Assembly (NCBI RefSeq): GCF_058153355.1
Contig: NZ_CM177019.1
Strand: one strand, 5' to 3'
Length of the DNA: 64,000 nt
The notes under the pieces were generated by a model that saw nothing but the letters and a program-made list of their open reading frames with translations, was not told the DNA's origin and did no database searches. Of this stretch, positions 34,607 through 52,218 are shown piece after piece. The translations under genes and the position numbers were made by a program. Within the stretch, counting starts at the first letter, position 1. The number at the start of each line of letters is the position of its first letter.

Positions 34607-34682
34607 GAGTGATTCCTTTTTAAGTTTTGGTAAATTACGTGACCTTGACTAAATCAGGTCTGATAAGATGGTTAATCTGGTT

Positions 34683-35153: not shown

Positions 35154-35189
35154 ATAGCCTGCTGATTAAGTGGGGCGACTATTCTTAAT

Positions 35190-35945
35190 TTATGAAGCTG
35201 CTCCTCTATTAATACTCTTTATCTGATGAGCAATATTTTTATATGAACGATGATTAGCCGAGTTCATTACATCATGGATATAAGGAAAATGAGGTAAGGA
35301 TGAGATGAACCGCTCACCCGCAGTGAGATGGCAGATGTCATCTCTGCGCACAAAACTCTCTGTGGTTAACTTCACCTGGATGATGCTGGCTACTGGAATA
35401 ACCCTGATTATTTCGGCCTGACAGGCAACTAAATACCATTTTCCTTCCGTGTGAATAAGACGATAAGGTTCAAAGACCGCGTGAGAATCATTGCCAGTCA
35501 GCAAATGAATACAGTTTTGTTGACAGATCGCCTGTATCAGCCGCTGAAAACATTCTGATGATACAACCGAGTCAGAATGCGATGAAGACCAGATAAGGCA
35601 GGGAGAATACGACGTTTCACCCGTGAGGTAATGCATCAACCTGCGATCAGGTGACGGAAATAATTGAGAGATTCCGGTGTTACGCATAAACGCCAGAACA
35701 TCTAATGAACTGTCTGTAAAGCGTTTCCCGTCAAGTCGCCAGCGCCCATTCTCACTAACGATATTAAGGTGGAGTAATCGCTGGTGGAAATCTCGCTGTA
35801 GCGTTCGTTCAGATACTCCAAACTCTTCTGCCAGGTTTTTTAGGTCAAGAGACTCTCCTGACAGTAACCGGCTAATAATCTGTGTCAGCCTGATGGCAAA
35901 CCGGTCATAACGAGTCGATGTAGTGTTCATCAGAAAAACGTCCAT
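35190..35945 (-). CDS. HTH plus WYL domain transcriptional regulator (YfjR-like)
   Basis: N-terminal HTH LSGESLDLKNLAEEFGVSERTLQRDFHQ; WYL signature EGKWYLVACQAE; track ORF begins at an upstream TTG, first ATG with plausible context used. Confidence 0.7.
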   Translation of the reverse strand: MDVFLMNTTSTRYDRFAIRLTQIISRLLSGESLDLKNLAEEFGVSERTLQRDFHQRLLHLNIVSENGRWRLDGKRFTDSSLDVLAFMRNTGISQLFPSPDRRLMHYLTGETSYSPCLIWSSSHSDSVVSSECFQRLIQAICQQNCIHLLTGNDSHAVFEPYRLIHTEGKWYLVACQAEIIRVIPVASIIQVKLTTESFVRRDDICHLTAGERFISSLPHFPYIHDVMNSANHRSYKNIAHQIKSINRGAAS

Positions 35946-36166
35946 GGATAACTTACTGTTTTTAATGATGTTATTATGAATCATGAGCACGACAGGATAT
36001 GTCGTAGTAACGGGAGGAATAGAGAAAAAACGTCCAGACAAATAACTAAGTAATATCCTGATTAACAATAACTATTTTTTCCAGAGACAGAACTGAAGCA
36101 GGTCGCGACATATCCTGTCGCTGAAACTCATAATTTTCAGGTGGCTTAACTCAGTGGGTAGATGTA

Positions 36167-37051
36167 TTAGAAAAACCAGTGCCATATTGCGGTAGCTGCA
36201 TTCTCCAGCCCTTCTCTGAGCACTCCCAACCCGTTGCGTATCATGTTGGGGAGAGGTATGGCCTCCAGAATCCTGCTCAATAATTCTCCCAACAAATCCG
36301 CGAAATCCTTTCGGGCCTTCGTCTCCGATTCTTTGGTGCGATGTTCTTTCCTGATCTGGCGAAAGACGCCACTGGTAGCCTCTGGTGGCAGGGCAAAAAT
36401 CATTGTTTCAACTATACGAGACATGTTGTAACCGGTTTTTGCTGAAACAGCATGCACCGGGTAAGGGGTAAAGAACTGGCGGGAAACGGCAGCACTTCTC
36501 GCTGTGAGCGTCATGAGTTGCTTCACTGAAGGAGATCCTTTTTCACGATCCCATTCCAGTGATGGCTCGGCTTTGTCAGCCTGGTTGATAACAAAAACAA
36601 TGCTGTCTGTCGATACGCCACAATCCAGTAGAAAACGGTGGAATTCTTCGTCTGTGGTACAGGCGCGGTCATCGGCTTTCATCACCCAGAGAATGAGATC
36701 CAGCTTCGGTAACTGTTCCTGATACATCTGGCGATATATCTCATCATGCTTCAGCGATTCACCTGCGCCCGGCAGATCGATCAGCGTCAGGCTGCGTCCT
36801 CCAGCGTTCAGGGTAAAATGCAAAGGTTTACGTGTGCAGCCTTCTGCATGGCTGACTGGGCTGAGAGGATGTTCAAAAAGAGCATTGCAAAGCGAGGATT
36901 TTCCGGCACCTGTTTTGCCCATGATGCCAATCACGGGTTCGTAATGAATACTCTGGCGTATATGCTCCAGAACCAAATCGGAGATATGTTCAGGAAGAAT
37001 GGATAAAGGTTGCTTCAGGACATTAATGCCCCGTTCAAAGGAATCAGACAT
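36167..37051 (-). CDS. P-loop GTPase (YfjP/YeeP/YkfA family)
   Basis: Walker A GIMGKTGAGKSS, DLPG and NQADK GTPase motifs; start at internal Met19. Confidence 0.8.
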   Translation of the reverse strand: MSDSFERGINVLKQPLSILPEHISDLVLEHIRQSIHYEPVIGIMGKTGAGKSSLCNALFEHPLSPVSHAEGCTRKPLHFTLNAGGRSLTLIDLPGAGESLKHDEIYRQMYQEQLPKLDLILWVMKADDRACTTDEEFHRFLLDCGVSTDSIVFVINQADKAEPSLEWDREKGSPSVKQLMTLTARSAAVSRQFFTPYPVHAVSAKTGYNMSRIVETMIFALPPEATSGVFRQIRKEHRTKESETKARKDFADLLGELLSRILEAIPLPNMIRNGLGVLREGLENAATAIWHWFF

Positions 37052-37215
37052 GTAGCCTCCGGAATGAAAAAATTCGATACAGCAACTTCGCTGCAATGTA
37101 TTCATTGCGGTAATACAGGTCTGTTTTTTTTTGCATTCGAATTACGGGGAGGAATGTGGTTTTGTGGAGCAAACCGGGGGCATTGCCCCGGTTCACTGAT
37201 ATGGTGAAATGATAT

Positions 37216-37455
37216 CTAACGTCGCATTACCCATTCATTCAGTTCTGACTCCAGCCAGCCAACGGATTGCCTTCCCAAGCGTTTTTGTTTTGGAAATGTT
37301 CCATCGTAGCGTGGCGATTTTGGATTAAGCCAGTCGTATATGGTTGAGCGTGAAATTCCCATTTTTTTCATTACATCTTTTAGCCTCAAGATCCTCGGTG
37401 AATCAGGAATATTTGCGTAACTGGATGTATGTAAGGAGGGAGGGTTCTGTAACAT
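37216..37455 (-). CDS. alpA: AlpA-family prophage regulatory protein
   Basis: 79-aa ORF with STIYDWLNPKSPRYDGTFPK HTH region. Confidence 0.75.
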   Translation of the reverse strand: MLQNPPSLHTSSYANIPDSPRILRLKDVMKKMGISRSTIYDWLNPKSPRYDGTFPKQKRLGRQSVGWLESELNEWVMRR

Positions 37456-37568
37456 CTAGGCTTCCTTAGTATGAGTTTGTTCGGGTGGGTCCATATTGCC
37501 AACCACGCTGGGGCTGTCATACACTGGAAGTAACATTAAAATAAAATCACTTTAGGGATTTACTTTTC

Positions 37569-38450
37569 ATGAAGGATGTGGGTGCGAATTTTTTTGATGA
37601 TTTCTATCTGCAAGTTTGTACCGCTTGTGAGGACAAACTTCTTGAGCTGGAATGGAAACTTGAAGTCGAAAAAAAGGAGAGCAACCAAGATGTTCTGCGC
37701 ACTTACAGGCAAAGAGCCTATGATAAAATTGAAGAATTTAAAATTATTGAGTATTCAAAAATACAATGTCAATATTTTGTAGATATGACTAATAGCGACA
37801 ATATACGCTACTCACAAGAGTTTATAAATGTTGATGGAATAATGGTTGAGAAACCTTTTATTTATAAGGAAACATATGCAGAATATCGGATTGAAATTCG
37901 AGGAAAAATGGACGGGTATAAACTGACAGGATTAGCAAGACTATATGATGCACATTATGAATATATATATCTATCTATGGCTTTAGAAGATTTTTACTGG
38001 GCGCAGTTCCAATATTCATTGGGCAATAAAAAAGAAAGTTGTAAGTTTCTTCTTGATGCTTATTCTTATATGAATGTCTGTATTTCGCGAGATGATAACC
38101 GAGACTCACCGAGTTTTCATCGATTAAGAAGTGGTTTTGATAAAGTATGCAGAAGAGCGCGCTCAAGCGCTGGAGGGAAAAATAAACTTGCAGAACTTGA
38201 ATATATTAAAGATACAGTTGTTATCTTACTTGAAGATATTCCTTCACATAGCGACTGGAAAAATAAACGTCAACTTCTTGAATATTTAATGCCCTATATT
38301 TGTAATAATGATAAAAAGGTCAATCCAGATAAATGGATAAATGATACAGGCGATAGAGAGGAAACTATCCGCCGCAGACTTAATAAATGGTTTACAGGTG
38401 ATCTAAAAGTAGAGATTGATAAAGTCCTAAAGAACAATACTAACAATTAA
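37569..38450 (+). CDS. Hypothetical protein (AT-rich island cargo)
   Basis: 293-aa ORF, no recognisable motif, soluble. Confidence 0.5.
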   Translation: MKDVGANFFDDFYLQVCTACEDKLLELEWKLEVEKKESNQDVLRTYRQRAYDKIEEFKIIEYSKIQCQYFVDMTNSDNIRYSQEFINVDGIMVEKPFIYKETYAEYRIEIRGKMDGYKLTGLARLYDAHYEYIYLSMALEDFYWAQFQYSLGNKKESCKFLLDAYSYMNVCISRDDNRDSPSFHRLRSGFDKVCRRARSSAGGKNKLAELEYIKDTVVILLEDIPSHSDWKNKRQLLEYLMPYICNNDKKVNPDKWINDTGDREETIRRRLNKWFTGDLKVEIDKVLKNNTNN

Positions 38451-38717
38451 TATTATTATGGTTTTGATATTTTTATGTCTATCAGGAGGGCTACTATACG
38501 ATCAGTCTTGATGGGTTTGAAATTACATCGCTATGAAAATACCCCACATAAATCTATTGGAAAACCAATCATTGTTAATATGACTATTGTTATGATGACT
38601 GTTGTAATTGTGTCTACACGAGAAATTGAATGAAATTTATAGGTTTGAAGTAGCCTTAGTGGTAGTCGAAAATAATTATGTAAATGGGCCTGCATTTTGC
38701 AAGAAGGCCCATTTACG

Positions 38718-39047
38718 TCAGGGGTAAATTATATATCCCATAATCGCACAGATTAACCGGTAATCACTCACGTAGAAGATTTCCGGATTCTCAGTGCTTT
38801 GTTCACCGATAAAGAAGACTTGAGCTCTCTCTTTAGCTTTTTTATTTACTGCTTCTTTTGCTTCTTCCTGCACAGTTTCAAGCTCATTCAAAAGCATAGT
38901 CTTTTTGGCTTTTGACCAGTCTCCCCACTCAATGTGTAGTTTATAGCTACGCGAGGGCTTAAACTTACCAGATTCGTCTTTTGCCCATTCTCCCGAGAGC
39001 GGAATGACAATTCGGTTTTCGTCTTGCTCAAATTTCTGCCATAACAA
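38718..39047 (-). CDS. Hypothetical small protein (doubtful)
   Basis: 109-aa ORF beginning with TTG and no RBS; only internal ATG at Met51. Confidence 0.25.
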   Translation of the reverse strand: MLWQKFEQDENRIVIPLSGEWAKDESGKFKPSRSYKLHIEWGDWSKAKKTMLLNELETVQEEAKEAVNKKAKERAQVFFIGEQSTENPEIFYVSDYRLICAIMGYIIYP

Positions 39048-39094
39048 CTGCGAATAAAAAACTCGGCGCTCAGGGTAGGGTTGAACCGGGTCTT

Positions 39095-39628
39095 TTAGTT
39101 TTTTAACACGGTCATGTAAGTATCGGCATTAATACCTGGGATAATTAATGACATACCACGGTCATACGGGAAGCGAATAAATGCCCTACAAATCTGGCGA
39201 ATAGCATTAACCGGGCGGCGGGATTGCCGCGCTGGAGCATTTCCCTCGCTGGATGCCGATGTTGTAGAACGTATTGGATTGGGTTTGTTGTTGTTACCAG
39301 TAGTGTCAGGATCAACAACGGGTCGATTTTCAATCAGTTTTAATCCTGCAGGCATCAAACCTGGTGCGCTATCTAACATGCGGCGGACGCTTTTCTTCTG
39401 CCCCTGTTTAACCACTGTGCTTTCTGCATCAGCATCGCAATTAATGTGCTCTTTTCCAGGCATTTTATTAAACGAAGGTCTTTTCTTACTTCCTTTTTGC
39501 CAAGCAGAAGGATACATCTCAATCCCACATCCCCAGCATACGTAACTGTTCGTATCTACAACATCAAGTAACCAAAGATCTTCTGCCTCAATAATCTCAC
39601 TGGTATATTTATCACGTGCAGATTCCAT
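39095..39628 (-). CDS. Hypothetical protein downstream of the STAND NTPase gene
   Basis: 177-aa ORF with strong RBS AAAGGAGA 4 nt before ATG; 45 bp after the upstream stop; Cys/His cluster CWGCG...HINC. Confidence 0.5.
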   Translation of the reverse strand: MESARDKYTSEIIEAEDLWLLDVVDTNSYVCWGCGIEMYPSAWQKGSKKRPSFNKMPGKEHINCDADAESTVVKQGQKKSVRRMLDSAPGLMPAGLKLIENRPVVDPDTTGNNNKPNPIRSTTSASSEGNAPARQSRRPVNAIRQICRAFIRFPYDRGMSLIIPGINADTYMTVLKN

Positions 39629-39673
39629 GATTTCTCCTTTAAACAGAATTCCTGTGAAGGCGGCTACTAGCCT

Positions 39674-42600
39674 TCATTCAAACCGTTGTTCCAATGCCTC
39701 ATCTTCCAATCGCTCGCGTTCTTTTTCCTTTTCAACCCAGTTAGTCAGTTTTTTATAAACAGCTCTAGCCGACTTAGAAATGTCTGCACGCTCGTGGGTG
39801 ACCAACCGGCCTATCGCTTCAACCCTGGGTTGCATCACGTTCGCACGACTACCGGACCATGATGAAGGTGCTACGTGTTCGGCAAAGATCTCAAGGACGG
39901 CTCGTGGCTCGGGTGAGGCTTCTAGAAATCTCAGAGCATCATCCTGCAAGCAAATAGGACTTTGCTCCCCGTCTTTTGACCATAGATTAATACCTGAAGC
40001 GACTGAAGCCCAAACCTGAGGGTCTTTAGTGGTCCCGCACCATTCAATCAAAATATCTACATCGATTTTCGCAATAGGAGACTGATGTGAATCATCATGA
40101 TTGATGAAATGCAGCCGCCTCTGTTGTTGATCCTCCGTACCATCAAAAATGCGACTGAGAAATTCTTTTGGCATCCATGCAGCGGTGATACCGATAGCGT
40201 CTTCGAAAGAAAAAATGTAGCCAAAATGCTCATCAACAACAGCAAAGATTGTATTCAGCCATTCTAGCTTTTCAGCCTCGTTGCCATCGAAGCGCAATGT
40301 GGCATCGATAACACGTTCCATTGCATAATCCAGATATCCGCCGAGATCGTTGTGATCTCTTTGGAACCTCTGGATTGCAGCGGATAGTCCAATTGTTCGT
40401 AGCGCAAGACCTAGTGTATCCGTAGCATCTCCTTTATCAGGTAGTTTCATACTCAATGCTTCCAATACTACTTCATCACCATTCGGTTTACTCAGCAGCC
40501 TTTGAGCAAGCTCGAGAACCCTGCTTTCTGGCAAATTAGAGAATTGCTCACCCCACAGAATTGCCCCATACATATGGGGCCGTATGTCAGAGTCATCCAG
40601 AAGCGACATGCAACGATCCAGATCGATTTCAGTAAACTCCTGCCAAGGATGTAGGTTGACTAATTCGAATCGAAGTTCGGAATGTTGTGCGCACTGATCG
40701 AGCAGTTCCTGCGCTAATGCTTTATCGATAGAATTCGTCTCTTCTATGAAACCTCGAATAACAGAAAAATCACTTTGAGATTTATGCTGTAGATTCATTT
40801 GAGTGATAAGTTTCTGCCAATAAACTCGTAGGTCAGGTGCTCCTTTAGCTAAGCCTTTACCGAATTCGACGCGATAGGGCATCCCATCTCGTAAGAATAA
40901 ATTAGGGCCTAACTCATCAAGTTCATGCGTGGATACTGCAAAGTCTTGCCCTAACTGGAACGCTTTTGCGTTAAGTATTTCCTTTATTTTTATGAATTTG
41001 TTAGGCCCCTCACGCTCAAAATCGGCATTCAGCGCCCAAAAATCACGCCCCTTACTGAGTACATAAGCCATAACTGCCGGAACCAAGTCATTAGGCTCCA
41101 ATTCTCGTTCCAATGTCACAAGTCCTTCCGGCAAAGGAGCTAAATCTTCGTTGTCATTTCTTTTGGTATGGGAAAAGTAAATTGTTGAGCGGACCGCTTT
41201 CCAGCCTTCACCCCAAGGACGATGGGCATGTAATTTGCGAGCCGCATCAATTAATTTTGACCTCATTCCTTCCTGACGCCAAATCCAGCGAAATTTATTA
41301 GCTAAGATCAGCCGAGCATCATCTTCAAGTTCGGGAACTCTTGAAGTTGCTAATCTCACCACAATGTCGATGAAGGTGATTAGCCACTCAACAAGCTCAT
41401 CGTAGCTGGGTCGAAATCCATAATCTCTTGGCCGAGCACCAAACTCATTAATCCCGAATCCTGTCCACGGTGGTCCGCCGAGAGCAGTTTCAAGCATTTC
41501 GAGCCCCAGCCTTCTACGTCCGGCCATACTTGAACCAATGCATTCATCCATGACCGCAACACGTTGTTCTAAAGAGGCATGGGTACCGGATAGATAAGGT
41601 TGGAAAAACCTCTTTATCTTATTTCGAGCCGAATCATAATTATTGCTCGCGCTTTCCTGATCTGCGATACGGATTAAGAGCTTAATGCATCGTTCAAAGT
41701 ATTTCGATTCATATGCAAGTAACTGCAACAATTTGATAATTGCTGTTCGTTGTGGGTTGTAGCGTGATTTAAAATGCTCAAAATTAGACGTAACAAGTGT
41801 TTCTTCAATCCGCTCAAGCAAAGCTCCCGGGGCGACTGGAGCGACATAATTCAGAATGCGTGTCGAAACATCATCTAGGTCTATTATTTTTCCAAGCAGC
41901 CCTTCGGGCTGTAACCAAGCTTCAACAATCTCTTTAGCCACAGCATGGCTGTGCAATAGTCCCAACCTGTGCGCGAACGACATCAATAATCGTTGTCGAT
42001 CCGGAGCTTCAAAGGTCGTCCTAAGTTGATCAATCGGAATACTATTAAGTGCAGATGCTGCCAACTTGTTAGCAATGGCATGGGGAAGGATGGCTCTCCA
42101 GTGGGATCTTTTCTGAACAACGTGACGTTCCATCAACTTCGTAACAGTTTTGAATAACTGGATTTTGGGATACCCAGAGAGCGCACCCAATATTTCCAGT
42201 TCATCGGTAGCTGCATCTGAACTAGATATTGAGAACGAATACACCAGTGACAATATTTCAGCTTGCTCCCGTAAATGGCCGTCGGGATGATTACGTTGTT
42301 CAAACAAGCGATTAAACAACTGCGCATCTGAAAGTAGGGCTAAACTCTCACCTTCCTCCACTCTTTCCGCTATAGCCAAAGCCACTCTTGCATTCCCATC
42401 TGCGAACTTTGCAATCCGACGGGCATTATTCTGACCAATAGAAGGGAAGCGACGGATAAGAAGTTGCTCTGCCACCTCTGGACCATCTGTCTCAATGTGG
42501 ATGACCTCAGTTGTCTGTGGTTTGTCATCCCTAATGTCGTACTCGATCGTGATGAGACTTACTTCTTTCCCTGCGGCTGATACTTTGCTGGCAAGCGAAG

Positions 42601-43525
42601 CATGGAGTTCTGATGGGCAATTATCAAGGATCATAATTGCTCGTCGGCCTTCAGCGAGCAGGTTATCAAGCATTGCTGTAGCCGACGGTACTGGCTCATA
42701 GCCAGTATCAACATAAATAGCTACTGTCCGGTCAAGCGCATCTGTTCCAACAGTATCATCAAAGAGCGCCTGAACGATTCGAGTCTTCCCAACACCAGAC
42801 AATCCTGTAATACGAACAGCCTTATTCGTCGAACGGATCAGTGCTCGCATTGGGTTAATTGCTTCATCAATTTTGAGTTTTTGCCCCTTTCCCGATGGTA
42901 AAGTAATGGTTACGCTTGGGGCTGAGATTAAAGTGTCTGTAACACCTTGTGGTGGATTGCTCCAGGCTCCGTAGGGTTGCCAACCGGAATACCCTTGCCC
43001 AAGCTTTGCTTTTACCCACAGCATGACTGATGGATGTTGGCGCAACCATTGGATGAGTTTGGAGCGGTCGTAGAAATCAAGATGAAGATAACTTTCGTTA
43101 GGATCATCTTTTACTGCATCTCTCATCGCTTTGAGACGATTCTTCTTTCCTGACGGCGAGCAATCATCACCCAGGCTGACAATGATGTAACTGCCTTGCT
43201 TTCTGGCTTGTTCAGAAATGATGGGAGAAAGTGCTTTTCCGGTGCCAATTTCCCTCTCGATTGCAGCCTTAGGCATCTTATGTTTCTTTGCCTGAAAGAC
43301 CGTATCAGGTCTTACAAGAAAGCCTGCTTTCAGTTGATCAACTGGAACCTGAACATGGATGTCAATTCCTCCGTCAGGGGCTGTAATTGAACCAGACCAA
43401 TTTACACATGCTGGGCTATGGCCGTGCATTGCCACTTCAGCTTCTGCTAGCCGAGCGATCAGCTCTTCCAACTGGATATCGGAGAGCCGAAGTAATTCGT
43501 CCTTTTCAATGTCAAAGATTGCCAC
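39674..43525 (-). CDS. STAND-type P-loop NTPase with N-terminal Mrr-like PD-(D/E)xK nuclease motif (Avs-like candidate)
   Basis: 1283-aa ORF (GTG start); DGGIDIH...VFQAKKH Mrr_cat-like motif near residues 50-80; Walker A GLSGVGKT near residue 245; Walker B-like AIMILDNC; about 900 aa of helical C-terminus. Confidence 0.6.
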   Translation of the reverse strand: MAIFDIEKDELLRLSDIQLEELIARLAEAEVAMHGHSPACVNWSGSITAPDGGIDIHVQVPVDQLKAGFLVRPDTVFQAKKHKMPKAAIEREIGTGKALSPIISEQARKQGSYIIVSLGDDCSPSGKKNRLKAMRDAVKDDPNESYLHLDFYDRSKLIQWLRQHPSVMLWVKAKLGQGYSGWQPYGAWSNPPQGVTDTLISAPSVTITLPSGKGQKLKIDEAINPMRALIRSTNKAVRITGLSGVGKTRIVQALFDDTVGTDALDRTVAIYVDTGYEPVPSATAMLDNLLAEGRRAIMILDNCPSELHASLASKVSAAGKEVSLITIEYDIRDDKPQTTEVIHIETDGPEVAEQLLIRRFPSIGQNNARRIAKFADGNARVALAIAERVEEGESLALLSDAQLFNRLFEQRNHPDGHLREQAEILSLVYSFSISSSDAATDELEILGALSGYPKIQLFKTVTKLMERHVVQKRSHWRAILPHAIANKLAASALNSIPIDQLRTTFEAPDRQRLLMSFAHRLGLLHSHAVAKEIVEAWLQPEGLLGKIIDLDDVSTRILNYVAPVAPGALLERIEETLVTSNFEHFKSRYNPQRTAIIKLLQLLAYESKYFERCIKLLIRIADQESASNNYDSARNKIKRFFQPYLSGTHASLEQRVAVMDECIGSSMAGRRRLGLEMLETALGGPPWTGFGINEFGARPRDYGFRPSYDELVEWLITFIDIVVRLATSRVPELEDDARLILANKFRWIWRQEGMRSKLIDAARKLHAHRPWGEGWKAVRSTIYFSHTKRNDNEDLAPLPEGLVTLERELEPNDLVPAVMAYVLSKGRDFWALNADFEREGPNKFIKIKEILNAKAFQLGQDFAVSTHELDELGPNLFLRDGMPYRVEFGKGLAKGAPDLRVYWQKLITQMNLQHKSQSDFSVIRGFIEETNSIDKALAQELLDQCAQHSELRFELVNLHPWQEFTEIDLDRCMSLLDDSDIRPHMYGAILWGEQFSNLPESRVLELAQRLLSKPNGDEVVLEALSMKLPDKGDATDTLGLALRTIGLSAAIQRFQRDHNDLGGYLDYAMERVIDATLRFDGNEAEKLEWLNTIFAVVDEHFGYIFSFEDAIGITAAWMPKEFLSRIFDGTEDQQQRRLHFINHDDSHQSPIAKIDVDILIEWCGTTKDPQVWASVASGINLWSKDGEQSPICLQDDALRFLEASPEPRAVLEIFAEHVAPSSWSGSRANVMQPRVEAIGRLVTHERADISKSARAVYKKLTNWVEKEKERERLEDEALEQRFE

Positions 43526-43991
43526 ATCCTAACCCTATTAAAGATACTGCGACTATATAAAAAGTTACCCTTATTCTAACCAATGACAGAAGGAATGTCC
43601 CTTAAACCGTTGCAATTAAAACCATTCTCATCAAGTAGTTAAGATTTTCTTACTCAGCACTATGATGTTGATCTTACCCACTTTGCGTCAAACTATTAGT
43701 ATGTATAAAGCACATTGCTGGCCTGATTAAGAAATGGATTGATATGTGAGTTAATGTCATTTATGAGCTTAAAGCTATTTTTAATCCCCTTTGCTTTACA
43801 ACTCTTTATATTATTTCATTCTTATTTACACCAATATTTATTGGTATGATGGTTTAATTTAATTCATTTTTGTTTTTTTGTTTGAAGCACATTGAAAGGA
43901 TATTATTATTTTCTCCTTCATGTTGAAAACAATTTAATTGGGCGGGTTTGGTTCGATATTATTAATATCTTTTTCAAAGAAATTATTTATA

Positions 43992-44000
43992 TGGTATAAT
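43992..44000 (+). promoter_or_regulatory. Candidate extended -10 promoter for the nuclease-helicase operon
   Basis: TGgTATAAT 33 bp upstream of ATG 44033 in an AT-rich divergent intergenic region; RBS AAGAGGG at 44022-44028. Confidence 0.4.
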
Positions 44001-44032
44001 GCAATAAAATCGTATTGAGGTAAGAGGGTACT

Positions 44033-46248
44033 ATGAGTGGATCTTTTGATTTCTTAGCTGGTTCTTTGGCTCTTGAAAATAAACCTTTCCATATGCAGGT
44101 TGCAGAGCTAATAAAAAATAAGTTTCGTCATTGTGAGGGATATATTGGCTATAAGCTTGCAACTTTGGGACGGGCATCGGACTCCGATGTTCCAGATTTT
44201 ATCATTATACAAAAGAACATGGCATAATTTTAGTTGACATGGTTGAAAGTAAGGTTTCTCGTGCGGATGAGGTGCAGGGGAATGAGGTTTGGTATTATGA
44301 GCATGGAGGTTCGAGTGTAGCAAGGAATTTTATTGTCGAGTTGTATGAGGAGGAGGTAAGAAGTAGATTAAAAAACGATGCAAATTTCTACAACAGAAGA
44401 AAAAAAACATGCACAGTTCCGATTACTAGCGCTGTTATTTTTTGTAAAAATAATAATAGTGAGATAGACAATTTCTATCAAGAGTATGCTGATTATGAAA
44501 GTTCAGCTATTGAATATGGCGAGATTGAGAATTGGTTAGATAGCGTTGAAGAAGGGTTCAATTGCGATTCTAAAGTTCTGGGGCGAATTTTTTCATTGTT
44601 AGAGGGGACGTTTATATATGAAAATAAAAAAATTCTCGATGAAGAACCACCCCTTAACACTGTGAATGATTATATCAAAAAATCTCTAAATATAACATTT
44701 AATCAAGATCACTCACAACGTATTGCTTCAATGCAACTAACCCCGGGCCCTCAGAGAATTCGTGGCTTGGCCGGAACAGGTAAGACGATAGTTCTTTCAT
44801 TAAAAGCTGCGATAACGCACAAAAAATTTCCAGATTATAAAATATTATATTTATTTAATACACAAAGCTTATATCAAAATGTGCAGAGTTCAATCGCCAG
44901 ATACTATACTTTAGAAGCCAAAAAAGCGCCAGATTTTGAATCGAATCTAAATGTCTTCCATGCGTGGGGTGGTAGGCAGAAACCGGGACTGTATTCATAT
45001 ATTTGCCAACAGTATGGATTAACTCCACTAACATTAGGAGATGTACGTGGAGCAAGTGATGCCTTAGCTGTCATATATGCAGAACTTCTCAAAAAAATCG
45101 GTGGTGATATAAAGCCTGAATATGATCTTATTTTAATAGATGAAGCCCAAGATTTTCCTAAAGAGTTGTTTGAAGTGGTCTTTAAACTAGCAAAGGGCAA
45201 ACCTCATGAGAAAAGGATCGTTTGGGCGTATGATGAATTCCAGTCATTGAAAGACACTCAAATTAAAGGTCCATCTGAGCTATTTGGTTTGGCCAAAGAT
45301 GGCACCCCAAATATGAGTGATGATGTTTTAGATGGATTCTATCCTGGTGACATAAAAAAAGATATTGTTTTATCCAATTGCTATAGGACTCCTCGTCCTG
45401 CTCTTATGACTGCTCACGGAGTAGCATTAGGACTTTATACTAATAAGCCGAATGAAATGTTTTATAACCATGATGAATGGAAAGCTATTGGCTATAAAGT
45501 TTTAAATCCTCAGACAAAAATCATTGCAAAAGGCAATGATGTGCAAATAGAGAGACCTAATGAAAATAGTCTAAATCTGTTGGAAGGAATTATGACAGAG
45601 CAGGGTAAGAGGGCCCTTAACCTTATCCAGACTAAGGTGGAAAATGATCGGGAAAGTCAATATGAATATATTGCAAGTAACATCAAACGTTTAATTGATG
45701 AGGAAAATGTCTCGCCTGAAGAAATAGTCATAATTAATTTGAAGTCCTCTAGTAACAAAGATGAGATGCTACGCATTCAATTCATCTTAAATAATTACGG
45801 TATTCACTCTGTAATTCCCGGTTACGTTGAAAGCTCAGATGTCTTTAAACCCAAGGGGTTCGTTACAATCACAACCCCTTTCAGGGCTAAAGGGAATGAA
45901 GCTAATATTGTATTTATTTTAAATAGCCAGTTAGTTGTTAATGATTTTTCATTAAGGATGCGTAATGCATTTTTTGTAGCAGTAACTCGAACAAGAGGAT
46001 GGTGTTATATTGTTGGTTATGGAGAAAAAATGCAAATGCTTGTGGACGAAATTTCAGGAATCAAAAGAGATTTCCCTATATTTAATTTCATTTGTCCTGA
46101 CCCTGATGATGTCAAAGCACGAAAAAGTTATCTCCACAAATCAGACTCTGAGATCAATGAGATGCAAAGAGTACTGGATTTAGTTAATAATAACGAAGAG
46201 TTAAGACGACTGCTACAGGAGCAGCTCATTGATAAGAAAGGAGATTAA
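44033..46248 (+). CDS. PD-(D/E)xK/NERD-like nuclease fused to SF1 (UvrD-like) helicase, apparently frameshifted (Nhi-like candidate)
   Basis: Track ORFs 44033-44227 (64 aa) and 44239-46248 (669 aa) join by a 1-nt shift in an A4 run at 44211-44214; helicase motifs GLAGTGKT, LILIDEAQDF, NCYRTPRP, TPFRAKGNEANIVFIL, VAVTRTRGW; N-terminal D...ExK (PDFIII...VDMVESK). Confidence 0.65.
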
Positions 46249-46250
46249 AA

Positions 46251-46922
46251 TTGAATTTCTCATTAGTGCAGCAAAGCTTAAACCATGTCGAAGCACTTTT
46301 AAAACCTGTAACTCAACAAAAATTAATAGAGTTTAAAGAAAGAGAGAAGGTCATAAGTTGGACAAATAGGAAGCCAGGAATTTACAATGAAGTCTACTAT
46401 CCTATTGAATATCAATGTGTAATTGATGCAAGGCAGTACTCATTATTGCTTCGAGATGGCGATTTTTTTCAATTTTTTTATGAGTTTGATGCGAAAACTG
46501 GCAATCTGAAGAAAGCTAAGTTGGCTTTCTATCCCTCACCAATTGATTGTAGAAATTCGTTGGATGATCTCAATGAAGCAGCTGAATTTGCTTTTGATCA
46601 TAATGAAGAACTCTATAATCATCTTGATAATTGGATTTCGCTATTGGAAATAAAAAACTATTTTCCAGCAAATACATCTCAAGTTAGATTTGATTATGAT
46701 AGTACGGTTACTACACATGAGAAAGCACATCTGCAGTTTAGTAGTGTAAATAAACTTAGACTTCCGGCTGACTTTTTTCCTTTGCCATATGCATTTGTAT
46801 TAATGGTTTCTGATCTTATTAATGGATGCTCAAAGGTAGATGCTAGACATATAAGCTTTACTAAGAGAAACAGCCTAAGATCAAATGTTTCTAATAGAAT
46901 CATAACCTTGAAATCACAGTGA
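46251..46922 (+). CDS. Hypothetical protein, translationally coupled partner of the nuclease-helicase
   Basis: 223-aa ORF with TTG start 3 nt after the upstream stop; RBS AAAGGAG at 46238-46244. Confidence 0.5.
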   Translation: MNFSLVQQSLNHVEALLKPVTQQKLIEFKEREKVISWTNRKPGIYNEVYYPIEYQCVIDARQYSLLLRDGDFFQFFYEFDAKTGNLKKAKLAFYPSPIDCRNSLDDLNEAAEFAFDHNEELYNHLDNWISLLEIKNYFPANTSQVRFDYDSTVTTHEKAHLQFSSVNKLRLPADFFPLPYAFVLMVSDLINGCSKVDARHISFTKRNSLRSNVSNRIITLKSQ

Positions 46923-46925
46923 ATT

Positions 46926-46961
46926 AACAAGCCTCTTTTATAAGGATATAAGAGGCTTGTT
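46926..46961 (+). terminator. Rho-independent terminator-like hairpin after the two-gene module
   Basis: AACAAGCCTCTT / AAGAGGCTTGTT 12-bp stem followed by ATTATTT. Confidence 0.5.
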
Positions 46962-47372
46962 ATTATTTCGCTAAATCTGATCACTGTCGAGAATTGATTG
47001 ATTTTTTGTGATTATTTATTCCATTCTGAGTTCATTGCCGATTTTATATGTATGTATTTTGTATCGGCTTATCTTGGCTTATTAAGTCTAGCATCACACA
47101 ATGCTTTTCAGGAAATCATCTTACCTATTAACCATATTATTACCGGCCCAACATTTCTCGCATTTACAGCTGGTAGCTCCTGTGTGTAAACGCTATTAAT
47201 CTCATACTCATTGGTTTAATATTAACTTTGAACTTCTGGAGTGCAGATCACCAATCCTAATATTACTACTAAATAGCTGCGCCTAATAACGCGACACCCG
47301 CCGTTTACTGTCTGGTGGCTTAACCTGCAAGGGCTGGCTGAAAGTGGGACACTATTCCGCGCAGCTATTTAG

Positions 47373-48614
47373 TCACCCAACTAGCTTCATTCCTTTTATC
47401 CCACCTTCAATCATGCTTCCACGATCCGCTGCCATCACAAAATTTGCCCACCATTGCATCATCGGGCGACGCTGTTCCAGGTAATCGCTGCGGTTATAAG
47501 CACGACGAACCTCATTCTTATCCACATGGGCCAATGCTGCCTCAATGACATCAGGCGGAAAGCCTTGTTCATTAAGAGCCGTACTGGCAATTGATCTCAG
47601 ACCATGCGAAACAAGCACACCACCAAAACCTGCGCGTTTTAGTGAGGCGTTAACAGTCTGACTGTTCATTGGCTGGTTGGGCTTGATACGGCTGGGAAAG
47701 ATAAATTCTCGGTTGCCGCTTAGCGGTTTCATCATCTCCAGCACAGCTATTGCTTCATCTGACAATGGAACAGTATGATCGCGGTTCATTTTCATGCGTG
47801 CTGCAGGAATCTTCCACTCTCGCGCTTCTATGTCTACCTCTTCCCAGCGAGCTTCAGCCGCTTCGGCAGGGCGGGTAATAGTAAGAAGTTGCCACATGAA
47901 CAGGCAGCGTGTGGAAAGGCTAATGCTGGCTGTTCGCATTGTCTGCATCAATTGAGGTAGCTGATCCGGTCGAATGCTGGGCATGTTCTTTTTCTGAGGC
48001 TTCTCGAAGGCTTTACCGATATTAACGCTGGGAACAGCATCAATCAGCCCTGTGTTTTGGGCATAGATCATGACCTCATTAATGCGCTGACACAGGCGAC
48101 GAACGGTTTCCAGTGCTCCTCTGGCCTGAACTGGTTGGACGGCCTGAACCAGTGTGTGTGCTTTAATATCTGTAACGCTAATGTCGCCAATTGCAGGAAA
48201 GACATCTCTCTCAAGAGAGCGCCAGATATCCTCTGCGTAGTCTTCGGTCACACTGGCTTTCTTCACATTCCACCAACGTTCAGCCACGAGCTGGAAAGTA
48301 TTGGTTTTAGCTTCCAGCGAACTGCGAAGTTGTTCTTGTTGATGTTCCTGGGGATCAATTTGTTTCGCCAGAAGAGAGCGGGACTCTGCCCGATAGTTTC
48401 GGGCATCGGCAAGGGTAACTGACGGGTAGGGGCCTATGCTCTTCTTCGCACGTTTCTTAGTGACAGGGCGAATGTAGCGAAACTGCCAGATTTTACTTCC
48501 GCTGGATTTGATGAGTAGCTCAAGGCCATCACCATCATAGAGAACGTAGTCCGCTTCTTTGGGTTTGGCGGATTCGATTTCTTTAACGGATAGAGGTTTG
48601 GTTTGTCTTGCCAT
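47373..48614 (-). CDS. intA: P4-type tyrosine integrase (IntA/SlpA family)
   Basis: 413-aa ORF MARQTKPLSVKEIESAKPKEADYVLYDGDGLELLIKSSGSKIWQFRY...; C-terminal catalytic region; adjacent to ssrA. Confidence 0.9.
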   Translation of the reverse strand: MARQTKPLSVKEIESAKPKEADYVLYDGDGLELLIKSSGSKIWQFRYIRPVTKKRAKKSIGPYPSVTLADARNYRAESRSLLAKQIDPQEHQQEQLRSSLEAKTNTFQLVAERWWNVKKASVTEDYAEDIWRSLERDVFPAIGDISVTDIKAHTLVQAVQPVQARGALETVRRLCQRINEVMIYAQNTGLIDAVPSVNIGKAFEKPQKKNMPSIRPDQLPQLMQTMRTASISLSTRCLFMWQLLTITRPAEAAEARWEEVDIEAREWKIPAARMKMNRDHTVPLSDEAIAVLEMMKPLSGNREFIFPSRIKPNQPMNSQTVNASLKRAGFGGVLVSHGLRSIASTALNEQGFPPDVIEAALAHVDKNEVRRAYNRSDYLEQRRPMMQWWANFVMAADRGSMIEGGIKGMKLVG

Positions 48615-48818
48615 TGCCGGGTTTCCATAGTTTTAGGCACCTCAAAAACAATAAAGCTTTATGAGGTGCCTAACAAGGTGCCTAAAAGGTTCGGATTTAA
48701 TTAGTTCTCTTCGGACTTCGCGGGACAAATTGAGGGCACAAAAAAGCCCGCAGGGCTTGCGCCGTGCGGACTCTTAGGACTTCATCGGATGACTCTGGTA
48801 ATCACCGATGGAGAATTT

Positions 48819-49181
48819 TGGTGGAGCTGGCGGGAGTTGAACCCGCGTCCGAAATTCCTACATCCTCGGTACTACATGCTTAGTCAGTCTTTACATTCGC
48901 TTGCCAGCTGCGGACGGACACGCCACTAACAAACTAGCCTGATTAAGTTTTAACGCTTCAACCCCAGGCAGGGCTTCCACGCGATCTCTTTTGGGTTTGA
49001 CCTCTCTTGATCCCCGTCCTAAGAGCGGAGGCTAGGGAGAGAGGGCTCTAAGCAGGTTATTAAGCTGCTAAAGCGTAGTTTTCGTCGTTTGCGACTATTT
49101 TTTGCGGCTTTTTACGAGGCCAACCGCCCCTCGGCATGCACCTTGGGTTTCGCAAATCCCGTCGAATCCAGAATCAGCCCC
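48819..49181 (-). ncRNA. ssrA: tmRNA (SsrA)
   Basis: Reverse complement reads GGGGCTGATTCTGGATTCGACGGGATTTGCG...GTTCAACTCCCGCCAGCTCCACCA (363 nt), with the tag-peptide reading frame region. Confidence 0.95.
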
Positions 49182-49395
49182 AATGTGTAACGGTAAGTAT
49201 ACCAGATTCATGAGTGCCATGACCAGCATCAATGGCGTTATCGTTAAAGATTTAGCACCCATGTAGCCTGATTTTTATTCGATTAAGCAATGGGATGGCA
49301 ACATTTGTGCCGGATGTGATAGCCAATAAGATGTTCATTCGCGCCGCCGGAGAGGGGGGCGCGGTGAGGAACTGGTCAATAATTGGAGTGCAGAT

Positions 49396-49878
49396 TTAAC
49401 GGTGCGCGTTTTTCATGATACGCGCTTTATCCACCTGCCATTCGCGTTCTTTGATGTCTGAACGTTTATCGTGCTGTTTCTTACCTTTAGCGACGCCGAT
49501 TTTCACTTTGCACCAGGCATTTTTCCAGTACAGGGAGAGCGCCACTACGGTATAGCCTTCTCGATTGACGCGACCGTACAATGAGTCCAGTTCGCGCTGG
49601 TTGAGAAGTAACTTGCGGGTACGGGTAGGATCGCACACCACATGCGTGGATGCCACAGCCATTGGCGTGATGTTAGCGCCAAACAGAAATGCTTCTCCAT
49701 CACGTAGAAGGACGTAGCTGTCGCTGATATTGGCTTTTCCTGCGCGCAGGGATTTAACCTCCCAGCCTTGCAGGGCAAGTCCCGCTTCGAACTCTTCTTC
49801 GATAAAGTATTCGTGACGGGCGCGCTTGTTAAGCGCGATGGTCGCTGAACCAGGTTTATGTGCTTTTTTCTTCGTCAT
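49396..49878 (-). CDS. smpB: SsrA-binding protein SmpB
   Basis: 160-aa [51 protein letters not shown]... Confidence 0.95.
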
Positions 49879-50009
49879 AAGCGTCGTGAATCATCGGTAA
49901 TCTGAAATCGAAAACACCCCATATCAATCCTGCGGGGGACAAGGCTCTATCTTAGCATGAACCCGATGTTACCCAGCGCCGGGATAGCGTTTTTTTTACA
50001 GCAGGATAA

Positions 50010-50486
50010 ATGATATTATTTGTTGGATTTTTGTTGATGGAAATTGTTATGCCTCAGATTAGCCGGACCGCACTGGTACCCTACAGCGCGGAGCAAATGT
50101 ATCAGTTAGTGAATGACGTTCAGTCTTATCCTCAGTTTTTGCCGGGTTGTACCGGAAGTCGGATTCTGGAGTCCACCCCTGGGCAGATGACCGCGGCGGT
50201 AGATGTCTCTAAGGCTGGGATCAGCAAAACGTTTACTACCCGCAACCAGTTGACCAGTAACCAAAGTATTCTTATGAATCTGGTGGATGGGCCGTTCAAG
50301 AAATTGATCGGTGGATGGAAGTTTACGCCGCTGAGCCAGGAGGCGTGTCGTATCGAGTTTCATCTCGACTTTGAGTTTACCAATAAGTTGATTGAACTCG
50401 CCTTTGGCCGCGTGTTTAAAGAGCTGGCGGCTAATATGGTCCAGGCTTTTACGGTTCGTGCGAAAGAGGTTTACAGTGCCAGGTAA
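50010..50486 (+). CDS. ratA: Ribosome association toxin RatA (YfjG, polyketide cyclase/SRPBCC fold)
   Basis: 158-aa ORF; K-12 synteny after smpB. Confidence 0.8.
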
Positions 50487-50766
50487 AATTGCCGTTGAGG
50501 TGGCTTATGCTCTACCTGAGAAGCAGTACCTGCAGCGCGTGACGCTGCAGGAGGGCGCGACGGTTGAAGAAGCTATTCGCACCAGTGGCTTGCTGGAATT
50601 GCGTACCGATATCGATTTAACTAAAAACAAAGTCGGCATTTACAGCCGTCCGGCAAAACTGAGCGATACCGTGCATGATGGCGATCGGGTGGAGATTTAT
50701 CGTCCTCTCATTGCCGATCCGAAAGAGCTTCGCAGGCAACGAGCAGAAAAATCAGCGAATAAATAA
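50476..50766 (+). CDS. ratB: RatB (YfjF, UPF0125)
   Basis: 96-aa ORF (V/M)[26 protein letters not shown]... from GTG overlapping the ratA stop. Confidence 0.8.
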
Positions 50767-50792
50767 CAGACAGAAAAAGGTGCTCATTGAGC

Positions 50793-52218
50793 TAATGCCG
50801 ATCAGTTAAGGATCAGTTGACCGATCCAGTGGCTGTGTAAGAATCCGGAAACGCTCACTTGTTTCCGGATTTTTTTATGCACATTGGACAGGCTCTTGAT
50901 CTGGTATCCCGTTACGATTCTCTGCGTAACCCACTGACTTCTCTGGGGGATTACCTCGACCCCGAACTCATCTCTCGTTGCCTTGCCGAATCAGGTACTG
51001 TAACGCTACGCAAGCGCCGTCTTCCCCTCGAAATGATGGTCTGGTGTATTGTTGGCATGGCGCTTGAGCGTAAAGAACCTCTTCACCAGATTGTGAATCG
51101 CCTGGACATCATGCTGCCGGGCAATCGCCCCTTCGTTGCCCCCAGTGCCGTTATTCAGGCCCGCCAGCGCCTGGGAAGTGAGGCTGTCCGCCGCGTGTTC
51201 ACGAAAACAGCGCAGCTCTGGCATAACGCCACGCCGCATCCGCACTGGTGCGGCCTGACCCTGCTGGCCATCGATGGTGTGTTCTGGCGCACACCGGATA
51301 CACCAGAGAACGATGCAGCCTTCCCCCGCCAGACACATGCCGGGAACCCGGCGCTCTACCCGCAGGTCAAAATGGTCTGCCAGATGGAACTGACCAGCCA
51401 TCTGCTGACGGCTGCAGCCTTCGGCACGATGAAGAACAGCGAAAATGAGCTTGCTGAGCAACTTATAGAACAAACCGGCGATAACACTCTGACGTTAATG
51501 GATAAAGGTTATTACTCACTGGGACTGTTAAATGCCTGGAGCCTGGCGGGAGAACACCGCCACTGGATGATACCTCTCAGAAAGGGAGCGCAATATGAAG
51601 AGATCAGAAAACTGGGTAAAGGCGATCATCTGGTGAAGCTGAAAACCAGCCCGCAGGCACGAAAAAAGTGGCCGGGACTGGGAAATGAAGTGACAGCCCG
51701 CCTGCTGACCGTGACGCGCAAAGGAAAAGTCTGCCATCTGCTGACGTCGATGACGGACGCCATGCGCTTCCCCGGAGGAGAAATGGCGGATCTGTACAGT
51801 CATCGCTGGGAAATCGAACTGGGATACAGGGAGATAAAACAGACGATGCAACTGAGCAGGCTGACGCTGAGAAGTAAAAAGCCGGAGCTTGTGGAGCAAG
51901 AGCTGTGGGGTGTCTTACTGGCTTATAATCTGGTGAGATATCAGATGATTAAAATGGCGGAACATCTGAAAGGTTACTGGCCGAATCAACTGAGTTTCTC
52001 AGAATCATGCGGAATGGTGATGAGAATGCTGATGACATTGCAGGGCGCTTCACCGGGACGTATACCGGAGCTGATGCGCGATCTTGCAAGTATGGGACAA
52101 CTTGTGAAATTACCGACAGGAAGGGAAAGGGCCTTCCCGAGAGTGGTAAAGGAGAGGCCCTGGAAATACCCCACAGCCCCGAAAAAGAGCCAGTCAGTTG
52201 CTTAACTGACTGGCATTA
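50793..52218 (+). mobile_element. IS4 (1426 bp) with 11-bp TSD GCTCATTGAGC
   Basis: Ends TAATGCCGATCAGTTAAGG... and ...CTTAACTGACTGGCATTA; TSD at 50782-50792 and 52219-52229; length matches IS4. Confidence 0.9.
50877..52205 (+). CDS. IS4 transposase
   Basis: 442-aa [34 protein letters not shown]... (start at Met7 of the track ORF). Confidence 0.9.

Follow-up and report, generated by a model that had tools for sequence, protein, structure and literature searches.

Described Systems Related to the Locus

Rousset et al. (2022; PMC9122126) described the two-gene anti-phage system Helicase+DUF2290 and, with a copy from a Klebsiella P4 satellite, validated it against T7. DefenseFinder lists the system as Rst_HelicaseDUF2290 and PADLOC as helicase-DUF2290. 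A phenotype is known only for the pair on plasmid pFR91 (from Klebsiella pneumoniae SB5961), and the protection it confers is against T7 only (PMC9122126). A lactococcal homologue did not protect against the phages with which it was challenged. Homologues occupy known defense hotspots in P4 satellites and in Vibrio and Bacillus prophages (PMC9122126). Among open-access papers in PMC and preprints in bioRxiv, none was found that gives a function for DUF2290, studies the mechanism of the system or tests its nuclease domain.

Other described systems share parts of this architecture. Nhi (Bari et al. 2022) likewise joins an SF1 helicase (DUF2075-like) to a nuclease-type domain within a single polypeptide, and its probable substrate is likewise phage DNA or replication intermediates; it consists of one gene, whereas the helicase described here has a co-conserved DUF2290 partner. 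Gabija likewise pairs a UvrD-like SF1 helicase (GajB) with an effector. In Hachiman, HamB is an SF2 helicase and HamA a separate DUF1837 protein; in the present pair the motor is SF1 and carries the nuclease fold in the same polypeptide, and DUF2290, whose fold is different, is the separate subunit. The nuclease domains of Can2/Card1 and VC1899 (DUF1887) and NERD domains are 8-14% identical to the domain found here; the helicase carries no CARF sensor and, unlike in those domains, the catalytic triad is not conserved across the helicase family.

A Divergent Member of the Helicase+DUF2290 System

The window (the whole stretch of DNA analyzed) is 64,000 nucleotides long and comes from NCBI RefSeq assembly GCF_058153355.1, contig NZ_CM177019.1. 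A two-gene module at positions 44033-46922 on its plus strand is very probably a divergent member of the Helicase+DUF2290 system. It combines an SF1 helicase that matches the system's profile, an adjacent PF10053 protein and an N-terminal NERD-like nuclease-fold domain on the helicase. Like the pFR91 pair, it joins a NERD-like/PD-(D/E)xK domain to a helicase of the SF1 UvrD type, has DUF2290 as a separate protein, keeps the same gene order and tight coupling and is carried on a mobile element in a defense hotspot. It differs from the pFR91 pair in belonging to a divergent subfamily, in lying on an ssrA island between an integrase gene and alpA rather than in the P4 hotspot, in carrying an N-terminal signature specific to its clade (an extra beta-hairpin with conserved W87, R98, R112 and R122) and in having a frameshifted helicase gene. 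The preliminary description of this DNA held that the partner was not part of any system that could be named, a claim overturned by the match to the published pair. The finding is real but not new, the system type having been published and validated in 2022, and it carries little weight as a discovery because Pfam, PADLOC and RefSeq already recognize both genes of this published system. The role in phage restriction that the description had proposed remains the best reading.

The open reading frames of the module encode 64 aa (44033-44227), 669 aa (44239-46248) and 223 aa (46251-46922), the first two being fragments of the helicase gene. The 223-aa gene begins 2 nt 3' of the helicase stop codon (46246-46248) with a TTG start at 46251. 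A Shine-Dalgarno sequence, AAAGGAG, was read at 46237..46243 on the plus strand within the 3' end of the helicase gene, with its GGAG 7 nt 5' of the TTG, so the partner gene does have its own ribosome-binding site as had been noted. Upstream, a promoter-like site at 43971..44000 on the same strand has a -35 element (TTTTCA/TTCAAA) and an extended -10 element (TGgTATAAT ending at 44000), with 10 of 12 consensus positions matched. The extended -10 sequence is therefore present, but its assignment as a promoter is putative and rests on a consensus match, and this AT-rich region shows no enrichment of promoter-like sites in general (22 observed against 16 +/- 4.2 expected). Downstream lies an intrinsic-terminator-like hairpin (46925..46968, plus strand) in which a 13-bp stem with three inner pairs (46925-46961) is followed by AUUAUUU. 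Its folding energy is -23.9 kcal/mol (z = -6.2), a value equaled by 0 of 200 shuffles; folding against shuffles detected it, though it is missing from the list produced by a pattern scan. The module is markedly AT-rich, with a GC content of 35% compared to 50.5% in the flanking core. All of the reading frames, motifs, signals and compositional features of the preliminary description were thus recovered at the same coordinates, and its view of the two genes as a co-transcribed unit is upheld.

The Helicase Protein

In its intact form the helicase gene (44033..46248, plus strand) encodes 738 aa, in which an N-terminal domain of PD-(D/E)xK fold (NERD-like) precedes a complete motor of the SF1/UvrD type. 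Residues 35-730 match positions 29-684 of the 707 in the PADLOC profile PDLC03002 'Helicase' (E 3.7e-110), which we infer to be the helicase-DUF2290 system model from its generic name and from its accession, which adjoins those of the DUF2290 models. A match to Pfam UvrD_C_2 was also found (E 1.3e-8). By BLASTP (E 2e-38), the protein shares 38% identity over 215 aa with the validated helicase of K. pneumoniae SB5961, which was compared through its first 399 aa (proteins from Table S2 of Rousset et al.). All five motifs quoted earlier as a full SF1 set were confirmed on the plus strand: the Walker A motif GLAGTGKT with K251 (44764-44787), motif II LILIDEAQD with D370 and E371 (45127-45153), NCYRTPRP (45376-45399), TPFRAKGNEAN (45874-45906) and VAVTRTRGW (45976-46002). 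Most residues of these motifs are at least 95% conserved among 110 homologues.

Other families match the protein partially. Matches to the Nhi, AbiO, 'NERD+UvrD', GajB and DRT helicase models are local, falling on motif II or on motifs V-VI, and do not denote family membership. The GajB models match residues 606-669 weakly (E 2e-5 and 8e-4), that is, the C-terminal stretch of about 60 residues with motifs V and VI. Gabija was rejected because the GajB match is confined to these two motifs and there is no match to GajA (ATPase-TOPRIM). Hachiman was rejected because neither protein matches the PADLOC Hachiman models and the motor is SF1. The sole NCBIfam model that matches is NF053713 (STM2767-family DEAD/DEAH box helicase), over residues 162-409 in the helicase 1A/1B region, and membership in that family was rejected at 138 bits against a curated cut-off of 550. 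PHROGs gave partial helicase matches only, and a sequence search of the PDB with the helicase gave no match.

The nuclease-like domain is restriction-endonuclease-like and covers approximately residues 1-150 of the intact protein (44033..44480, plus strand). It holds D55 at the start of strand 2, D69, and E72-S73-K74 at the end of strand 3, so that the D55...E72-x-K74 triad is complete in the frameshift-corrected protein. The earlier claim of a D...ExK nuclease-like segment stands with respect to the fold and to the complete triad in this protein. It does not extend to the family, as the triad is not conserved across the 110 homologues in the way expected of an essential active site. Pfam NERD does not match the helicase protein. 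Among the 110 homologues, position 55 is occupied by Ser in 88, by Thr in 16 (104 together) and by Asp in five, and residue 74 is Lys in 48, Arg in 31, Gln in 10 and Glu in eight; D69 alone is invariant. The validated Klebsiella protein, like the E. coli P4 and Bacillus proteins, has no clean ExK. The 'nuclease' label is a fold-level call, and these substitutions suggest that the domain may be catalytically dead in most family members.

The DUF2290 Partner

The partner gene (46251..46922, plus strand) had been described as encoding a protein with no recognizable motif. Its 223-aa product in fact matches Pfam PF10053 (DUF2290; E 5.3e-11) and the PADLOC models PDLC02998 and PDLC02999 (E 2.5e-13 and 1.5e-10), shares 30% identity by BLASTP with the validated DUF2290 protein of K. 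pneumoniae (E 8e-12) and is already annotated as DUF2290 in RefSeq. No NCBIfam model matches it and it is absent from PHROGs. A tblastn search (E <= 1e-3) found 0 homologues in 50,697 phage records, and tblastn of public records gave one distant plasmid match, in Exiguobacterium.

The most conserved polar cluster of DUF2290 lies at 46686..46760 on the plus strand and comprises R146-F-D148-Y-D150 (46686-46700), H156...H160 (46716-46730) and R170 (46758-46760). Conservation was counted in 136 representatives, each standing for one cluster at 50% identity. R170 is present in all 136, R146 in 135, D148 in 132 (with E in the remaining four), H156 in 131, H160 in 121 and D150 in 111. In the predicted structure the polar residues fall on adjacent strands (145-150, 159-163 and 170-172), and together they form a near-invariant R-x-D-x-D...H-x3-H...R surface that resembles a site for catalysis or ligand binding. 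Foldseek of the DUF2290 model against AFDB50 returned essentially DUF2290 proteins alone, with no outside structural relative, and the DUF2290 profile gave a single insignificant match among PDB sequences (4mjf, E 0.11). The lack of conservation of the triad across the helicase family and the near-invariant DUF2290 cluster are two leads to the mechanism.

A Frameshifted Copy

The helicase gene is frameshifted in the window, which reads ATTATACAAAAG; the sequence is ATTATAACAAAAG in E. coli FEX669 (NZ_CP065152, operon at 48970-51993) and in three independent Logan assemblies. One A has been lost at 44208..44209 (plus strand), giving ATACA in the window against ATAACA in all of the intact copies aligned. 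FEX669 and the three Logan assemblies (4/4) encode the intact 738-aa helicase. The premature stop created by the frameshift leaves a 64-aa 5' fragment that contains helix 1 and the first two strands of the nuclease-like domain, P54-D55 among them. The remaining 669-aa frame starts at the internal M70 with no evident ribosome-binding site and contains the whole SF1 motor.

The frameshift is probably genuine, since the identical 669-aa truncated product occurs in two NCBI records (EGO8354571.1 and HFG3511293.1) and the adjoining 14.8 kb of core chromosome, compared with E. coli IAI39, has no indels within coding sequences. An assembly error would fit the fact that all five indels in the 36-48 kb region are 1-nt deletions in A or T runs, but it is the less likely cause given those two observations. 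Programmed frameshifting at 44208 was rejected, as there is no slippery heptamer and every other copy is in frame. With the helicase cut short at 64 aa by the deletion, the window strain most probably has an inactive system. The break bears on whether this copy functions; membership in the family is unaffected. Across the 3-kb module the window allele differs from the intact FEX669/Logan allele by approximately eight substitutions in addition to the frameshift, and the pair of alleles offers a loss-of-function comparison and illustrates how a defense system decays. Further decayed helicase genes are found in Methylovorus L006 (split over two reading frames), Escherichia fergusonii (truncated to 438 aa) and E. 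coli (truncated to 498 aa).

Proposed Mechanism and Alternative Readings

A tentative mechanism can be proposed for the intact system, although as a whole it is more likely to be wrong than right. The helicase and DUF2290 would form a complex, and the helicase would load on phage DNA, at ends or at replication intermediates, as has been proposed for Nhi, for GajB of Gabija and for HamB of Hachiman. Once loaded it would burn ATP in translocation or unwinding, and DNA damage would then be inflicted by the nuclease-fold domain of the helicase (in which D55/E72/K74 are complete in this clade), by DUF2290 or by both. DUF2290, which is translationally close-coupled to the helicase as the stand-alone product of the second gene, could be a second effector or a gate or sensor that licenses the helicase, since its near-invariant polar surface looks catalytic or ligand-binding. 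A variant that appears somewhat more doubtful still is that the NERD-like domain is a largely degenerate, non-catalytic sensor of DNA or of a signal and that DUF2290 is the true effector or switch, with a fold that, judging by the structural model, would be unlike any solved structure. If this variant is true, DUF2290 would be an enzyme under helicase control, or a ligand-binding immune effector, of a new class.

The module might instead resemble a toxin-antitoxin pair, with a genotoxic helicase and a DUF2290 antidote that serve addiction to or stabilization of the island more than phage defense. The tight coupling to a small downstream gene and the carriage of the pair on a mobile island would suit such an arrangement, as would the RqlH/RqlI precedent cited by Rousset et al. 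(PMC9122126), and the repeated decay of helicase genes is compatible with a costly protein. This is improbable, however, as the homologous Klebsiella pair has an anti-T7 phenotype and the invariant polar cluster of DUF2290 is enzyme-like rather than that of a simple binder. In the window the putative toxin is broken and the putative antidote intact, a pattern that the decay of a defense gene fits equally well.

In nine of nine genome loci, from Methylococcaceae, Cellvibrio, Pseudomonas, Methylovorus, Nitrosospira, Xanthomonas and Massilia, the helicase gene is directly upstream of the DUF2290 gene on the same strand, and the two genes either overlap or have no more than about 20 nt between them. 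The pair is also adjacent in all four close copies (FEX669 and the three Logan contigs) and in the three remote DUF2290 contigs that were informative, where the identity of the upstream helicase to that of the window is 43%, 33% and 29%. The two genes are thus adjacent and co-oriented in every informative locus examined, and the partner is co-conserved with the helicase. Each of the best 150 DUF2290 matches stands alone as a protein of 83-267 aa, with no orphan fusion among them. These observations, with adjacency holding down to 29% helicase identity, argue strongly against a stand-alone Nhi-like nuclease-helicase accompanied by an unrelated or dispensable passenger gene, which we consider slightly less probable again than a toxin-antitoxin pair. 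The Nhi-like assignment made in the preliminary description drew on a real likeness, in that both proteins join a nuclease-like domain to a DUF2075/Schlafen-type SF1 motor, the helicase matches Pfam SLFN-g3_helicase (E 0.0017) and locally the PADLOC models for Nhi (E 4.5e-8) and AbiO (E 5e-9), and the triad is complete in the window protein. It does not hold, as the Nhi model PDLC02372 covers only 49 residues around motif II (362-410) compared to residues 35-730 for PDLC03002.

The Genomic Island

The module is flanked on one side by an integrase gene (47373-48614, minus strand) and on the other by an alpA homologue (37216-37455, minus strand), which bears out its earlier description as cargo between the two. 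It is horizontally acquired, AT-rich cargo in the variable integrase/alpA slot of an ssrA-integrated (CP4-57-like) E. coli island. Of 5426 complete E. coli genomes, many with an ssrA island, 5425 lack the module. This absence, the position in a variable cargo slot beside PD-Lambda-4, the homologues in defense hotspots and the empty search of phage records for DUF2290 make a repair, replication or recombination helicase that serves the island (e.g., in its excision or replication) and has no immune role the least probable reading of all, even though an SF1 UvrD-like motor adjoins the integrase and has a weak match to a PHROG 'DNA helicase' family (E 6e-14, approximately 115 residues).

PD-Lambda-4_A and PD-Lambda-4_B adjoin the Helicase+DUF2290 module immediately upstream. 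With two defense systems stacked at this position, the integrase-alpA slot of ssrA (CP4-57-type) islands is a possible defense hotspot. The neighboring PD-Lambda-4 is likewise frameshifted by a 1-nt deletion. The 1-nt deletions in Helicase+DUF2290 and in PD-Lambda-4 could reflect selection to shed costly or auto-toxic immunity.

Identity of the gene pair

The two plus-strand genes at 44033-46248 and 46251-46922 encode an SF1 helicase (738 aa once a frameshift is mended) and a 223-aa partner. The preliminary description found no recognisable motif in the partner and regarded it as part of no nameable system; neither statement holds. The partner matches Pfam DUF2290 (PF10053, E 5.3e-11) and two PADLOC DUF2290 models (E 2.5e-13 and 1.5e-10), and the literature identifies the pair as the Helicase+DUF2290 system, called Rst_HelicaseDUF2290 in DefenseFinder and helicase-DUF2290 in PADLOC. 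Rousset et al. (PMC9122126) described the pair, reported that it specifically inhibits phage T7, and also located it in Vibrionales and Bacillales, at prophage hotspots. With the frame restored, the helicase matches the PADLOC "Helicase" model PDLC03002 (E 3.7e-110; residues 35-730, profile positions 29-684 of 707) and, in Pfam, UvrD_C_2 and weak SF1 P-loop families. Other candidates were rejected: the PADLOC models for AbiO, Nhi, "NERD+UvrD", GajB and the DRT helicase align to short stretches alone (motif II or motifs V-VI), and the sole NCBIfam match to the helicase, the STM2767 helicase family, falls far under the cut-off.

The validated Klebsiella pneumoniae SB5961 proteins (Rousset Table S2) were compared with the window proteins by BLASTP. 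The helicase is 38% identical to the validated helicase (its first 399 aa) over 215 aa (E 2e-38), and the DUF2290 proteins are 30% identical (E 8e-12). These identities place the window copy, as judged from sequence, in a divergent subfamily of the known Helicase+DUF2290 system. The initial observation is confirmed and its interpretation supported in part: the system type is already known and standard tools recognise it, and the remaining value lies in the mechanism of DUF2290 and in the specific mutants proposed.

Gene organization and co-conservation

Three plus-strand open reading frames (ORFs) are listed in the module: 64 aa (44033-44227), 669 aa (44239-46248) and 223 aa with a TTG start (46251-46922). 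The signals proposed for the unit are all present. An extended -10 promoter (TGgTATAAT, plus strand) ends at 44000, the partner has its own ribosome-binding site (GGAG, 7 nt 5' of the TTG, which follows the helicase stop after a 2-nt spacer), and a terminator hairpin occupies 46925-46961 (-23.9 kcal/mol, z = -6.2). The module is AT-rich as claimed (35% GC vs 50.5% in the flanking core chromosome) and lies between the integrase (47373-48614), which adjoins the tmRNA gene (48819-49181), and an alpA homologue (37216-37455). The five helicase motifs named earlier were likewise all found, with most of their residues at least 95% conserved among 110 homologues.

Pattern scanning, with one genome per species, yielded nine loci with relatives of the partner (36-50% identity), from Methylococcaceae, Cellvibrio, Pseudomonas, Methylovorus, Nitrosospira, Xanthomonas and Massilia. 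At all nine, a helicase homologue (50-60% identity) ends directly upstream on the same strand, with junctions from overlapping stop and start codons up to about 20 nt. Among 1.84 billion cluster representatives, a profile search returned 1377 DUF2290 clusters at E <= 1e-3; the best 150 are all unfused, stand-alone proteins 83-267 aa long. Four remote representatives were looked up, and the three whose contigs extend to a neighbouring gene all have a helicase directly upstream (43%, 33% and 29% identical to the window helicase; junctions overlapping or of 18 nt). The suspicion that the partner might not be co-conserved with the helicase therefore fails in the loci examined, and the helicase and DUF2290 form one unit.

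State of the helicase gene

The 64-aa and 669-aa ORFs are one gene, in which frame 3 runs from ...VPDFIII into KEHGIILVDMVESK... The only complete E. coli genome with the module DNA is that of strain FEX669 (NZ_CP065152; 1 of 5426, 99.7% identity), and alignment to it reveals one A lost in the window (ATTATACAAAAG vs ATTATAACAAAAG in FEX669). In the FEX669 annotation the gene is whole (738 aa, "DEAD/DEAH box helicase") and the next one encodes a "DUF2290 domain-containing protein". An identical 223-aa protein is encoded in three independent Logan assemblies, each with an intact 738-aa helicase and the same upstream neighbour; the two Logan contigs of sufficient length have the same complete integrase.

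The frameshift is probably real, because the exact 669-aa truncated product occurs in NCBI (EGO8354571.1 and HFG3511293.1, E. coli hypothetical proteins) and the window's core chromosome (14.8 kb, at 49.2-64 kb) is free of indels within coding sequences vs E. coli IAI39. An assembly error is the less likely source, although each of the five indels vs FEX669 in 36000-48000 removes 1 nt from a run of A or T, as such an error would have it (37066, A7 to A6; 38515, T4 to T3; 39104, A3 to A2; 44208, A2 to A1; 47246, A2 to A1). Two of the five strike coding sequences, both of them defence genes.

The deletion brings a stop after 64 aa. The 669-aa ORF begins midway along strand 3, at internal M70, and no ribosome-binding site is apparent before it. 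The deletion is thus predicted to destroy the N-terminal domain of the helicase, and expression of the motor and its coupled partner from the frameshifted gene appears doubtful. Other helicases of the family are also broken or shortened, including those of Methylovorus menthalis L006 (3807-5923, in two reading frames), E. fergusonii (WP_181670275.1, 438 aa) and E. coli (HGX9318911.1, 498 aa, a record marked partial that a contig end may have cut short), which hints at recurrent decay of this component. The window copy is rare, divergent and probably inactivated.

Domains of the two proteins

The assignment of the helicase N-terminal domain to the PD-(D/E)xK fold is solid. The likenesses listed include many type II restriction enzymes, NucS, Hjc, Shedu SduA, Hna and HamA. 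The Rousset table (PMC9122126) assigns residues 11-112 of the validated helicase to NERD (HHpred probability 98.1%); the Pfam NERD HMM matched none of 30 N-terminal sequences. In the structural model, strand 2 is opened by P54-D55 and strand 3 closed by E72-S73-K74, so that the triad is complete in the window protein and its modelled geometry canonical. Most of 110 homologues (88) have Ser at position 55, with Thr in 16 and Asp in 5, and 95 retain E72. At position 74, Lys (48) is followed by Arg (31), Gln (10) and Glu (8). D69 is the only invariant one, and strand alternation puts it on the opposite face. The strand-2 Asp is kept, without a clean ExK, in the validated Klebsiella protein, the E. 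coli P4 and Bacillus proteins and one remote metagenomic protein. Given this variation, nuclease activity seems plausible in the clade of the window helicase and unlikely as a universally essential activity of the family.

The DUF2290 model (pLDDT 76.8, pTM 0.72, 24 sequences) has an N-terminal helix against an antiparallel sheet and a poorly predicted helical insert. Foldseek against AFDB50 gave no informative structural neighbour, the matches being essentially DUF2290 proteins alone, from many bacterial phyla and one archaeon; a DUF2290 profile search of PDB sequences returned nothing significant. Among 136 representatives, each from a 50%-identity cluster, R170 is invariant (136), followed by R146 (135), D148 (132, with Glu in the other 4), H156 (131), H160 (121) and D150 (111); Y50 (133), Q74 (128) and D69 (121) are also conserved. 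The R-x-D-x-D and H-x3-H motifs and the further Arg lie on or beside three neighbouring strands. This dense invariant polar surface is a putative catalytic or ligand/nucleic-acid-binding site.

Proposed mechanism

The components, their coupling and their fold assignments are demonstrated here, and a homologous pair blocks T7 (Rousset et al., PMC9122126); PMC open-access papers and bioRxiv yielded no assignment of a mechanism to the pair. In the mechanism put forward here, the helicase and DUF2290 would join in a complex whose SF1 motor binds phage DNA ends or replication intermediates and translocates by ATP hydrolysis, as proposed for Nhi and, within their two-protein systems, for GajB and HamB. 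Damage would come from the fused PD-(D/E)xK domain where the triad is intact (as here), from DUF2290, or from both, and DUF2290 may be a second effector or a gate or sensor. As a whole this mechanism is tentative.

A toxin-antitoxin-like pair of helicase and antidote would fit the repeated helicase decay (in the window, Methylovorus L006, and the truncated E. fergusonii and E. coli copies) and is nonetheless very unlikely. A lone Nhi-like enzyme whose neighbour is a passenger gene, set against the co-conservation of the pair, is less credible still, and a housekeeping helicase of the island is the most improbable of all.

Neighbouring island genes

PD-Lambda-4 (38718-43525, minus strand), a second known defence system, lies directly upstream of the module and divergent from it. 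PD-Lambda-4_A (39674-43525, minus, 1283 aa) is a full-length match (2500 bits), and PD-Lambda-4_B is split (39095-39628 and 38718-39047, minus) by a 1-nt deletion at about 39104 vs FEX669. Both island defence systems therefore bear single-base frameshifts. The divergent PD-Lambda-4_A and helicase genes are separated by a 507-bp intergenic region (43526-44032, 29% GC) with several promoter-like sites on both strands.

The island as a whole shares 96.5% identity with its FEX669 counterpart, and the module has 8 mismatches in 3 kb (99.7%); the shared island outside the module (32500-48850) has about 15-90 substitutions per kb. The low divergence of 44000-47000 points to a module that passed recently from one island to another, or else to a recombination boundary.

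Other island genes between alpA and a yfjI-like gene (33887-38450) encode a WYL-domain regulator-like protein (35190-36068, minus) and a protein of the small-GTPase family that weakly resembles LeoA/LeoBC (36167-37105, minus), together with unannotated ORFs at 37569-38450 (plus), 34683-35153 (minus) and 33887-34606 (minus). The yfjI-like gene is interrupted by an IS66-family element (30040-32508; transposase 30070-31641, accessory ORFs 31661-32008 and 32005-32433), whose flanks overlap by 8 bp when mapped to FEX669, in keeping with an 8-bp target duplication. The core region has, close to yfjF and bamE, a 1.4-kb IS4-like insertion (50793-52218) that is 99.8% identical to an IS4 copy of E. coli IAI39, which has no insertion at that site. 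The ORF listing also contains a very long plus-strand ORF of 1600 aa (20609-25411).
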